The position numbers and the translations under genes are program-made. Positions 12,715-37,875 of a DNA stretch of 64,000 bases are shown piece after piece. The notes beneath the pieces were generated by a model. The model searched no databases. It worked only from the letters and a program-made list of their open reading frames with translations, and was not told where the DNA came from. Source of the DNA: an uncultured virus (IMG/VR IMGVR_UViG_2667527966_000006) (Duplodnaviria; Heunggongvirae; Uroviricota; Caudoviricetes); the IMG/VR virus record IMGVR_UViG_2667527966_000006; one strand, 5' to 3'. How positions within the stretch are numbered: position 1 is the stretch's first letter; every line of letters begins with the position of its first letter.

Positions 12715-12828
12715 GGTTTGAAGTCCTCAATCGCCAGAACACATCCCTTCTGATTCCTCTTTCCAAACTGCTTTCCAATCGCTATGATCTGCCAAATAGT
12801 AAGTAAGTAGTTACCTATCGGTGAGAGC

Positions 12829-21268: not shown

Positions 21269-21445
21269 ATCACTTATACGTTCATAGACGACAAAATGTA
21301 TTAACAACGTAGAACAGGTGACTGCTACAGATCTAAGAAAGTGCGATTGATCAGAGTCAAACGTTTAACGGCCACAATCCAACGGACGCAGGATGAGAAG
21401 CCAGTACTGATCAAAAAATGATCAAACTGACGTATGAAATAATAG

Positions 21446-21481
21446 GTAAGTATTTACTTATTAAATTGATACAACTATGAT
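21446..21481 (+). promoter_or_regulatory. Putative sigma70 promoter of ncRNA cluster overlapped by operator A
   Basis: TTTACT (21453-58)-17 bp-TATGAT (21476-81); GTAAGTATTTAC at 21446-57 covers the -35. Confidence 0.55.
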
Positions 21482-21489
21482 TGGCTTGT

Positions 21490-21615
21490 TTTCGTTGAAA
21501 CGCGACTGTTTGAACGTTTAAAGATAACTGCAAACGACAATCAGTACCTGGCAGTAGCCTAAAAAGCTAAACACCAGCGAGGTCAGTTTCCAGCCTCGTC
21601 ACCGAAATGGGACAC
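21490..21615 (+). ncRNA. tmRNA-like mRNA domain (tag ANDNQYLAVA*) lacking a tRNA-like domain
   Basis: ATAACT-GCA AAC GAC AAT CAG TAC CTG GCA GTA GCC TAA at 21524-21562; stop codon in a hairpin loop; possible pseudoknots on both sides. Confidence 0.65.
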
Positions 21616-21642
21616 ACTAAGCGAGTGTGATTGCAAAACGCA

Positions 21643-21674
21643 GGTAGGGCATCTGGTTAACCAGTGCCCTTACC
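21643..21674 (+). ncRNA. Structured element 1 of ncRNA array
   Basis: GGTA-GGGCA-t-CTGGTT/AACCAG-TGCCC-t-TACC near-perfect hairpin. Confidence 0.45.
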
Positions 21675-21675
21675 G

Positions 21676-21759
21676 ATGAGGTAACAGAATGGGCGGTTGG
21701 GTTTTATGTCCAACACATCCCGGCTCCCAAAGGCCCGACCGTCTATCCTGTTACGTCAT
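21676..21759 (+). ncRNA. Structured element 2 (long hairpin)
   Basis: ATGAGGTAACAGAATGGGCGGTTGGGTTTT pairs with AAAGGCCCGACCGTCTATCCTGTTACGTCAT using several G-U pairs. Confidence 0.5.
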
Positions 21760-21832
21760 TTCTGTTACTTATGTCGTTTAGTTTTGGGTTAAAAATGGCG
21801 ACGTAACACGGCTGGTTAGGTGAGCCAGCACG

Positions 21833-21925
21833 CAACGTTGAGACCACTGGTTTTTGCATCACAGAGGCAGAACCGGCAGACATGTAGGGCCAAGTACATT
21901 AATCCGTTCCGTGGTCTCAACGTTG
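21833..21925 (+). ncRNA. Structured element 3 (15-bp closing stem, two internal hairpins)
   Basis: CAACGTTGAGACCAC/GTGGTCTCAACGTTG perfect; inner CTGGTTTTTGC/GCAGAACCGG and ATGTA/TACAT. Confidence 0.55.
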
Positions 21926-21985
21926 TGGTCACGGATTCATTATCCTTCTGGTTATAGCCATTGTTGTCACTGCCCCGTGGCCACA
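21924..21985 (+). ncRNA. Structured element 4 (11-bp stem, 40-nt loop)
   Basis: TGTGGTCACGG/CCGTGGCCACA with one G-U pair. Confidence 0.5.
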
Positions 21986-22197
21986 GCGATTAAATGATTC
22001 CATACATCTAATTTGATCTGAATGAAAACTCTCCTCAACCCTCGGAGAGTATTTGAAGGTCTTGGCTTGTAAGCGTTTGGTGAACACGTAAAGCACAAGT
22101 GGCAGAAAACGGTAGGACTGCTGCGAACGACACCGGTGAATCGGCGATACGGCCCCACAAGTCCGTAAATCGACAGAGGCTGACGGTGTCAACCTTA

Positions 22198-22272
22198 GAT
22201 GGTGTAGCTCAGTGGTAGAGCGGTTGACTGTTAATCAGCTGGTCGGTGGTTCGAATCCACCCACCATCGCCA
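22198..22272 (+). tRNA. tRNA-Asn (GTT)
   Basis: Cloverleaf: GATGGTG/CACCATC acceptor, GCTC/GAGC D stem, CT-GTT-AA loop, GGTGG-TTCGAAT-CCACC T arm, encoded CCA. Confidence 0.95.
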
Positions 22273-22363
22273 CAACGGTAAGGGTATTTGGACGACAGCA
22301 AGGAAGGCGCGCTCTTTGGCTGTTCGCGACGGATCTGATTCCCTGAATGCCCTTACCGTTGTG
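22271..22363 (+). ncRNA. Structured element 5 (18-bp closing stem, internal hairpins)
   Basis: CACAACGGTAAGGGTATT/AATGCCCTTACCGTTGTG. Confidence 0.55.
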
Positions 22364-22419: not shown

Positions 22420-22506
22420 GGAGGATAGAGGGCATGGCGCCCAAGCGGTCTTGAAAACCGTCCCATTGCGAAAGCGATGATGGTTCGATTCCATTATCCT
22501 CCGCCA
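22420..22506 (+). tRNA. tRNA-Ser (TGA), probable 8/4 fold
   Basis: GGAGGATA/TATCCTCC acceptor, GCGGT-CTTGAAA-ACCGT anticodon arm, long variable arm CATTGC-GAAA-GCGATG, ATGG-TTCGATT-CCAT T arm, GCCA end. Confidence 0.88.
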
Positions 22507-22507
22507 A

Positions 22508-22586
22508 CACAGCGTTGAGCGGTTTGGTTTGATTTCTTATCGAAAAGACTCCGCCTGTCACCATGGCCAGACCGCTCAACGCTGTG
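22508..22586 (+). ncRNA. Structured element 6 (21-bp stem, 37-nt loop)
   Basis: CACAGCGTTGAGCGGTTTGGT/GCCAGACCGCTCAACGCTGTG with G-U pairs. Confidence 0.55.
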
Positions 22587-37323: not shown

Positions 37324-37449
37324 TCATGGAGTTAGTAGAGAAGCCGTCCAGATCTAACGACCTTTAACTCCTTCCAATAATCCTTCCAAACTGACTACTC
37401 AGGCTCAGGCCGTCATCGTTATCGCAGCGGATAGATTACCGAAATGAAA

Positions 37450-37665
37450 TTAGCTCAACGTAACTACGTTTGAAGCAGCAGGGCCTTTAGCACCGTTCTC
37501 AATAGAGAACTCAACTTTTTGGCCTTCTTCCAGGGTACGGAAGTTGTTGCTCTGGATGGCAGAGAAATGTACGAACACGTCTTTGCTGCCGTCTGCTGGG
37601 GTAATAAAACCGAAGCCTTTATCAGCGTTAAACCATTTTACTAAACCAGTCATTTTGTTAGACAT
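37450..37665 (-). CDS. CspA-family cold-shock protein (CspB/CspG-like)
   Basis: [36 protein letters not shown] (RNP1/RNP2). Confidence 0.95.
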
Positions 37666-37875
37666 AGAGATTACCTTCATTATTTGAGAGCCACACAACG
37701 CGGCGAAATTGGTCTGAGAGATTGGTACTTACTTGGGCACTTAGGAGGAGACTCACGGAGAAGGGTAATCTTTGGATAACACCTGAACTTCGGACTGCTT
37801 TACTAAAACTGCTTTCATAAGGTCTGTCTTGCAAACCGACGCAATCATTAACGCATGGCCTTTCTGTTTGTGCAA
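37666..37875 (-). promoter_or_regulatory. cspA/cspB-type promoter and long 5' UTR (cold-responsive leader)
   Basis: TTGCAC-17 bp-GTTAAT on the minus strand, then CGTCGGTTTG...AGTTTTAGTAAAGCAGT..TTCAGGTGTTAT resembling the E. coli cspB leader. Confidence 0.7.

Follow-up and report, generated by a model that had tools for sequence, protein, structure and literature searches.

A widespread phage RNA built from the message half of tmRNA and predicted to target the host tmRNA

A tag-coding element upstream of phage-plasmid tRNA genes

The DNA analyzed here (the window; 64,000 nucleotides) lies in a replicon that, by sequence identity, is a Klebsiella pneumoniae SSU5-like phage-plasmid of 108.9 kb. 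NZ_CP032225.1 (108,879 bp) matches the window at 99.995-100% identity over nearly its whole length, and virion, helicase, primase and ligase genes are annotated around the window in the SSU5-like phage-plasmid. The element under study sits in an unannotated gap between the end of a small open reading frame (ORF; 21268) and the start of tRNA-Asn (22198). Searches at Rfam gathering scores returned cspA and one tRNA as the sole matches in the window. The locus comprises the following features.

21441..21462, no strand: imperfect palindrome overlapping the -35 box, member of a dispersed family
21453..21481, plus strand: sigma-70-like promoter (9/12; -10 box ends 7 nt before the arm)
21488..21497, plus strand: antisense block A, predicted to pair over 10 bp with nt 95-104 of the host tmRNA (tag codons 2-5)
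21502..21511, plus strand: antisense block B, predicted to pair over 10 bp with nt 82-91 of the host tmRNA
21509..21522, plus strand: linker or hairpin from the arm to the element's own resume signal; site of the pk1-pairing extension in longer variants
21520..21529, plus strand: frame-setting sequence (T21525 and A21526 as equivalents of tmRNA U85 and A86)
21530..21562, plus strand: tag frame ANDNQYLAVA*, without a start codon (from the sequence and its relatives)
21548..21577, plus strand: hairpin resembling helix 5, its loop holding the stop codon (covariation)
21577..21612, plus strand: pseudoknot A (per-sequence stems and covariation)
21613..21642, plus strand: pseudoknot B (stem 1 firm; stem 2 short and uncertain in the window copy)
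21643..21674, plus strand: hairpin directly 3' of the module, like stems flanking the module in other phages
21676..22197, plus strand: structured non-coding leader, in the SSU5 group only, outside the shared module
22198..22272, plus strand: tRNA-Asn(GTT), downstream of the module
22420..22506, plus strand: tRNA-Ser(TGA), downstream of the module

An initial annotation of this DNA had read 21530-21562 as ANDNQYLAVA*, preceded by AAGATAACT, and had reported no ATG, GTG or TTG back to the stop at 21467; we obtain the same frame, with none of these codons in the 20 codons back to the TGA at that position. An A stands at -4 in all 48 distinct upstream-plus-tag sequences (from 236 copies), and the -5 position is U or C in every one; these two positions were absent from the patterns that found most copies but formed part of the profile used to collect some. 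Frame setting on tmRNA has A86 as its main determinant, while U85 tolerates C (PMC2481249), and Tyr55 of SmpB stacks on A86 (PMC8363625).

The 43 distinct 10-codon tags contain no internal stop, make use of TAA, TGA and TAG, and encode 26 different peptides. Codons 4-6 vary freely (codon 5 is represented by 16 different codons), and across 38 aligned copies the frame shows a single indel, a full codon in length. Conservation of codons 1-3, codon 10 and the stop is partly selected, since these were in the search patterns, and codons 7-10 are doubly constrained, being also paired in the stop-codon hairpin. Half of the peptides (13/26) end in Ala-Ala, as the host tag does, and 13/26 in Val-Ala; the GCA that the host uses at codon 9 is kept in only 5 of the 43 tags. 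N-terminal residues that bind SspB are, we presume, largely kept. Six of 235 loci were left out of the tag counts (L238, L276, L296, L322, L350 and L358; all E > 0.02), three of them being complete permuted tmRNAs according to ARAGORN. More broadly, viral contigs L322, L350, L358 and L405 carry apparently complete permuted tmRNAs; three of the four are called by ARAGORN, and L405 has both acceptor halves.

Alignment of homologous loci supports the structures downstream of the resume codon as well as the kept frame. The stop-codon hairpin described in the initial annotation is paired in 81.6% of cells over 38 relatives, with two-sided changes in 6 of 7 pairs and none of 500 shuffles as good. 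The pseudoknot proposed after it (21577-21612) also holds, and it is directly followed by a second one, missed at first, that carries the element from the originally given end at 21615 to about 21642. Together, pseudoknots A and B are paired in 94.1% of 714 cells, with two-sided changes in 14 of 20 pairs, 0/500 shuffles as high and slid controls reaching at most 44.4%, although the alignment of the 38 relatives was fitted to the two first stems only and kinship can beat such shuffles. Stem 2 of pseudoknot A, which was not fitted, is 97.8% paired and shows two-sided changes in 3 of 4 pairs; a per-sequence comparison of stems agrees with the alignment covariation for both pseudoknots. A further pseudoknot had been placed upstream of the tag as a counterpart of pk1 (TCG/CGA with AAACG/CGTTT). 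We reject it: 57.7% of cells are paired, 39/500 shuffles score as high, stem 2 reaches 35.8%, and the segment is antisense to the host tmRNA instead of being conserved as a pseudoknot. Folded alone in a pseudoknot-free model, the window RNA does no better than shuffles (z -1.0). The hairpin at 21643-21674 is a possible processing signal, by analogy.

Beyond the module, the leader (21640-22197) folds better than all of 100 shuffles (z -5.0), contains long inverted repeats at 21676-21759 and 21833-21925, belongs to no Rfam family and may harbor further small RNAs. Its portion 3' of 21643 matched 10 phage records, all SSU5-like by name and size; because this portion is confined to the SSU5 group, the unit exchanged among phages is the module of ~155 nt. 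Other long inverted repeats with variable loops flank the tRNAs (22271-22363 and 22508-22586), and similar stems flank the module in many phages. The tRNA-Ser(TGA) gene (22420-22506) has tRNA-Sec as its top model (44.1 bits) and falls below the Rfam tRNA cut-off. Elsewhere on the phage-plasmid, the minus strand at 37417-37840 encodes a cspA-type thermoregulator 5' UTR and a cold-shock gene. The ORF just upstream of the module in SSU5 (L003, 2198-2503) and in plasmid relatives is annotated as a 'C-type natriuretic protein', probably a misannotation.

The promoter placed immediately upstream by the initial annotation (21453-21481) is, taken alone, not above chance (one such site found vs 2.6 expected); a promoter-like site occupies the same position in SSU5-type relatives. 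The palindrome that overlaps it belongs to a dispersed family, with 13 copies (up to four mismatches) in the window and more elsewhere on the plasmid, and is probably the repressor operator of the phage-plasmid. Other sites of ~20 bp include those at 12799, 24341, 42436, 46318, 55764, 61378 and 63598. The copy in P1 sits after the C1-controlled P1ban promoter (ban operon) and that in HK633 after the late promoter pR'. From these two settings and the operator over the promoter, we infer transcription in lytic growth. The stretch is present in 14 RNA runs from 5 studies, and contigs span the element in 4/4 RNA libraries; these contigs indicate presence only, carry no strand, end or level information and may include DNA carry-over. 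One metatranscriptome contig (20898-22166) has a depth of 18.8 against 0-12 in its flanks, a weak hint only.

Resemblance to tmRNA and spread among phages

The initial annotation described a tmRNA tag module without a tRNA-like domain, and this description proved right. ARAGORN calls no tmRNA within the window, and relaxed searches of Rfam return tmRNA_permuted (21.7 bits, E 0.053; cut-off 47) and alpha_tmRNA (18.2 bits, E 0.0047; cut-off 50), both driven by the tag region. Throughout the 108.9-kb replicon, the only T-arms are those of tRNA-Asn and tRNA-Ser, neither with alanine identity, in a scan that found 3/4 control tmRNAs. A 5'-acceptor/D-loop pattern that recovered 12/12 controls matched the replicon loosely at three places, none of them closer than 38 kb to the element. 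RF00023 had no match above 47 bits in 10 records (best 11.9 bits, over model positions 83-140 only), RF04321 none above its cut-off of 47 in 5 records (best 29.8 bits), and smpB was found in none of the 5 records searched. The replicon yielded neither SmpB nor an alanine-acceptor piece; the presence of such a piece is what the initial annotation had named as fatal to its 'headless' reading.

Two ARAGORN calls were rejected. A relaxed permuted call over the element itself is sub-threshold, one of 29 such calls in the plasmid, and its supposed tRNA domains fall in the upstream gene and spacer. Among 228 loci, a tmRNA was called in one, phage Moogle, whose genome paper reports ssrA (PMC4319497); the predicted gene extends across three tRNA genes and borrows its 5' domain from the interior of tRNA-Lys, and the module lies in a 277-nt gap between two tRNAs that is too small for a full tmRNA. 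The Moogle locus also has, at 1940-2150 (L009), a T-arm and acceptor 3' half followed by a long tRNA-like element without alanine identity; this half is the part used in the false call.

We compared the element with the two known tmRNA architectures. One-piece tmRNA (SsrA, RF00023) shares with it the U85/A86-like signal, a GCA resume codon, an AND/ANE tag of 10 codons, a stop codon in a helix-5-like hairpin and pseudoknots downstream (two here vs three in tmRNA). The phage RNA differs in lacking both pk1 upstream of the resume codon and the paired-end tRNA-like domain (G3.U70 acceptor, T-arm, CCA), in its length (~155 vs 363 nt), in having a 5' end antisense to the host tmRNA, and in matching RF00023 at positions 83-140 only, far below the cut-off. 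The coding piece of two-piece, or permuted, tmRNA (RF04321, RF01849) is its best Rfam resemblance and is likewise a tag-coding RNA base-paired to another RNA; two-piece tmRNA also occurs in marine phages such as Melnitz (PMC9004378). Here, however, no acceptor piece was found in the gene or replicon, the RNA does not begin with a 5' acceptor strand and D-loop, and the predicted partner is an intact host tmRNA bound at its message. We conclude that the phage RNA is real and widespread and that, while not a tmRNA by membership, it is built from the message half of one.

The 801-nt region around the module matched 775 of 72,556 plasmid records, and, with E allowed to reach 1, its core matched 507 of 50,697 phage records (407 at 1e-5, with a longer query). 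A variant query detected it in 691 of 5,426 E. coli genomes, or about one in eight. We read the module directly in SSU5, P1, HK633, Roufvirus, phage 7-11, N4-like Gamaleyavirus, an Alteromonas autographivirus, four genera of Ackermannviridae, three of Ounavirinae and two Chaseviridae; named carriers also include Felix O1, Vi01 and marine phages. It usually lies inside or before tRNA clusters. A loose pattern search of contigs produced one true copy (L185) among 120 loci, and a match in Campylobacter phage CP220 was discarded as it has no tag. In the P1 record, a 'dicF-like region' just upstream is the sole annotation at the module.

Papers on the tmRNA database list complete phage tmRNAs together with the RNA of mycobacteriophage DS6A, which consists of a tRNA-like domain (TLD) only, and describe pipelines that reject genes missing an end (PMC4131195, PMC11915505). 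The element is the reverse of the DS6A RNA, with a tag frame and no tRNA-like domain. A tag-only phage RNA antisense to tmRNA was not found in a full-text literature search, outside which subscription papers largely fall.

One tRNA-like gene in the Ounavirinae has unusual features. At ~2726-2807 in Felix O1 (L004), 150 nt past the tag, lies a tRNA-Arg(TCT)-like gene that lacks a D-arm; its variable region is long, acceptor position 3 is a G.U pair and the discriminator base is A. The gene recurs in L029 and L039, and in L039 the anticodon stem covaries. An ordinary tRNA-Arg occupies this site in other Ounavirinae. From its sequence, the D-arm-less gene could be charged with alanine.

Complementarity to the host tmRNA

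The arm of the window copy (21488-21511) is computed to form two 10-bp helices with K. pneumoniae tmRNA, at -26.3 kcal/mol. Block B is directed at U85, A86, the -1 triplet and two resume-codon bases of the host molecule. When 30 representative arms were paired with the E. coli tmRNA (363 nt), the top-scoring duplex of every arm overlapped the resume region; compared with 60 shuffles each, 21 arms beat all, 3 were matched once, and 6 (short arms) were matched 3-17 times. E. coli K-12 and a K. pneumoniae chromosome each contain a single exact copy of the bipartite target, in both cases within ssrA; in two lysogen genomes, the arm of the prophage itself is the only additional exact match. Of 11,856 background windows, one pairs as well as the window arm, and that one is another tmRNA; the next best reaches -24.4.

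Arms bind the host tmRNA more strongly than their own tag region in 35/35 cases (mean -22.8 vs -11.2), and the phage upstream sequence and tag codons diverge from those of the host at positions paired by the arm. Long arms, which make up 35 of 65 distinct ones, stretch the pairing over pk1 to host nt 56, and in all 35 the CC that pairs with pk1 stands 12 or 13 nt from the element's own resume codon (13 in E. coli). The whole-molecule gain on co-folding is only -7.7 kcal/mol in a pseudoknot-free model, and two copies (L313, L339) lack block A. The data do not support a universal switch in which the phage keeps its own A at -4 masked before binding; such masking appears in 23 of 65 arms, mostly short ones. 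By this computed, conserved and specific complementarity, the phage RNA is predicted to be aimed at the host tmRNA, and the antisense arm would provide a physical route for action of the module in trans.

Complementarity of this kind invites comparison with AgvB and AsxR, prophage anti-sRNAs that target Hfq sRNAs and have no reading frame. Like these, the element is a small phage RNA located in late or tRNA leaders, with a non-coding RNA of the host as its predicted pairing partner. Unlike them, its predicted target is a housekeeping RNA, and it carries a conserved tag frame and pseudoknots.

Whether the arm follows the host can be judged in a few pairs. In one marine copy (L406), both blocks are altered, and the arm pairs at -31.8 with ANDDNY-type tmRNAs (L416, L421) vs -20.5 with that of E. 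coli; the window arm shows the reverse (-19.4 vs -26.7). No metagenome record contained the strict host sequence that L406 predicts. At one pk1 position, G.U and U.G are swapped between two prophage-host pairs (G361, G134). The arm of the Alteromonas phage scores -24.1 on E. coli and, with four ANDETY tmRNAs, between -26.9 and -28.2, but also -27.2 on one ANDENY tmRNA; this is only suggestive of a fit, the compared tmRNAs not being that of its actual host. Arms of the Salmonella-infecting SSU5 and Felix O1 fit Salmonella tmRNA worse (-22 vs -27), so arms do not track their hosts closely. Overall, these sequences suggest that the arm partly follows the host tmRNA, in few independent cases. Searches for further host pairs gave 2 of 151 genomes, 1 of 201, 0 of 401, and, in a search of 401, 6 true copies among 12 matches; a search for arms fitted to non-enteric hosts gave one true copy among 4 matches, and two further such arm patterns retrieved known copies only.

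Possible modes of action

We favor, with about an even chance of being right, trans-translation in trans: a phage RNA without a tRNA-like part would hybridize to the host tmRNA, borrow its tRNA-like domain and SmpB, and supply its own tag, to be decoded by the rescued ribosome. A trans-acting alternative tag had been among the initial proposals and ranks first here; that annotation had missed the antisense arm, which would serve as the docking part. Its other suggestion of a pure SspB/ClpXP decoy leaves this arm unexplained.

Under trans-translation in trans, an RNA of ~155 nt would share its transcription with the tRNA cluster, most likely during lytic growth. As computed, its 5' arm would pair with host tmRNA nt 82-104 through two short helices, masking U85/A86 and the resume codon, and the phage strand would exit the duplex where the host message exits pk1; long-arm variants would, in addition, replace the 3' strand in stem 2 of pk1. 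SmpB and the tRNA-like domain of the host would presumably enter the stalled ribosome as usual, SmpB would set the frame on the phage A86-equivalent, and the phage tag would be read to its stop. Rescue would go on, with the phage picking the tag and its last codons and thereby perhaps altering protease choice and RNase R-linked mRNA decay. A change of the penultimate Ala raises the KM of ClpXP (PMC7652416), which would suit the 13/26 Val-Ala peptides and not the 13/26 Ala-Ala ones; since the latter end as they do, escape from ClpXP cannot be the general purpose. The last two tag codons also affect RNase R recruitment (PMC4176180). We found no precedent in the literature for a ribosome resuming on an RNA merely base-paired to tmRNA.

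Such a template swap, if true, would be a new means of redirecting ribosomes, in which the resumed message is picked by RNA-RNA pairing, with no covalent link to the tRNA-like domain. The tmRNA tag template would then be exchangeable by base pairing alone, many phage families would reprogram the C-terminal tag, and even such intensively studied phages as P1 and Felix O1 would manipulate the main bacterial ribosome-rescue and degradation pathway through an RNA missed by annotation. What phages gain from manipulating tmRNA becomes directly testable in E. coli K-12.

A simpler possibility, to which we assign a smaller though still substantial likelihood, is an antisense inhibitor: the arm would silence the host resume site, the body would stay untranslated, serving only to stabilize the RNA or to help it bind the ribosome, S1 or SmpB, and stalled ribosomes would pass to ArfA/ArfB rescue without a degradation tag. 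All the computed evidence on the arm fits inhibition too. Antisense oligonucleotides against tmRNA cut trans-translation by >95% in vitro (PMC7038980), a helix over the resume region has been proposed to block frame setting (PMC2481249), and arfA is repressed by trans-translation (PMC10107115). The TLD-only RNA of DS6A, reported to inhibit tmRNA, is likewise a phage-borne half-tmRNA thought to interfere with the host system (PMC4131195, PMC11915505). Inhibition leaves unexplained the invariant A86-equivalent, the frame of 10-11 codons with interchanging stops, the hydrophobic C-termini and the conserved 12-13-nt spacing. Even this weaker, blocking reading would amount to a natural antisense inhibitor of trans-translation in about one-eighth of E. 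coli genomes (691/5,426).

Two other explanations appear improbable. The RNA could be a splint that anneals to host tmRNA cut in its message by a defense or toxin nuclease and restores rescue, on the model of phage tRNAs thought to replace cut host tRNAs. The location of the module in tRNA clusters or leaders of many phages and the many tags that remain Ala-Ala degrons agree with repair, but block A needs host nt 95-104, and the target must thus be intact past the resume codon. With similarly little likelihood, the arm matches tmRNA incidentally and is directed at something else (an mRNA or its own transcript), or the element is a decaying relic. The six arms matched by 3-17 of 60 shuffles and the next-best background window at -24.4 leave some room for this, against which stand an exact target unique to ssrA, the same site in 30/30 copies and arm changes that track another tmRNA type. 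The relic, already raised in the initial annotation, is excluded by conservation across unrelated phage families, covarying stems and a kept frame. Least probable of all, and already largely refuted, is the coding piece of an ordinary split tmRNA with its acceptor piece elsewhere in the phage: its support is the weak Rfam matches to the permuted and alpha models and the ARAGORN permuted call in Moogle, published as ssrA (PMC4319497), and it is opposed by the T-arm scan and the RF00023 and RF04321 searches described above, by a sole call in 228 loci that borrows tRNA-Lys, and by a module without a 5' acceptor strand.

Two loci on plasmids assigned to Yersinia add minor observations. The Yersinia pestis plasmid NZ_CP033692.1 (L448) holds an intact copy of the module, with the tag ANEDTYLAVA, ~400 nt from caf1R. 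NZ_AP028969.1 (L452; 502 kb), named a Yersinia pseudotuberculosis plasmid and possibly a misassigned sequence, carries smpB and a 381-nt tmRNA with the unusual tag ANDSQYESAALAA.
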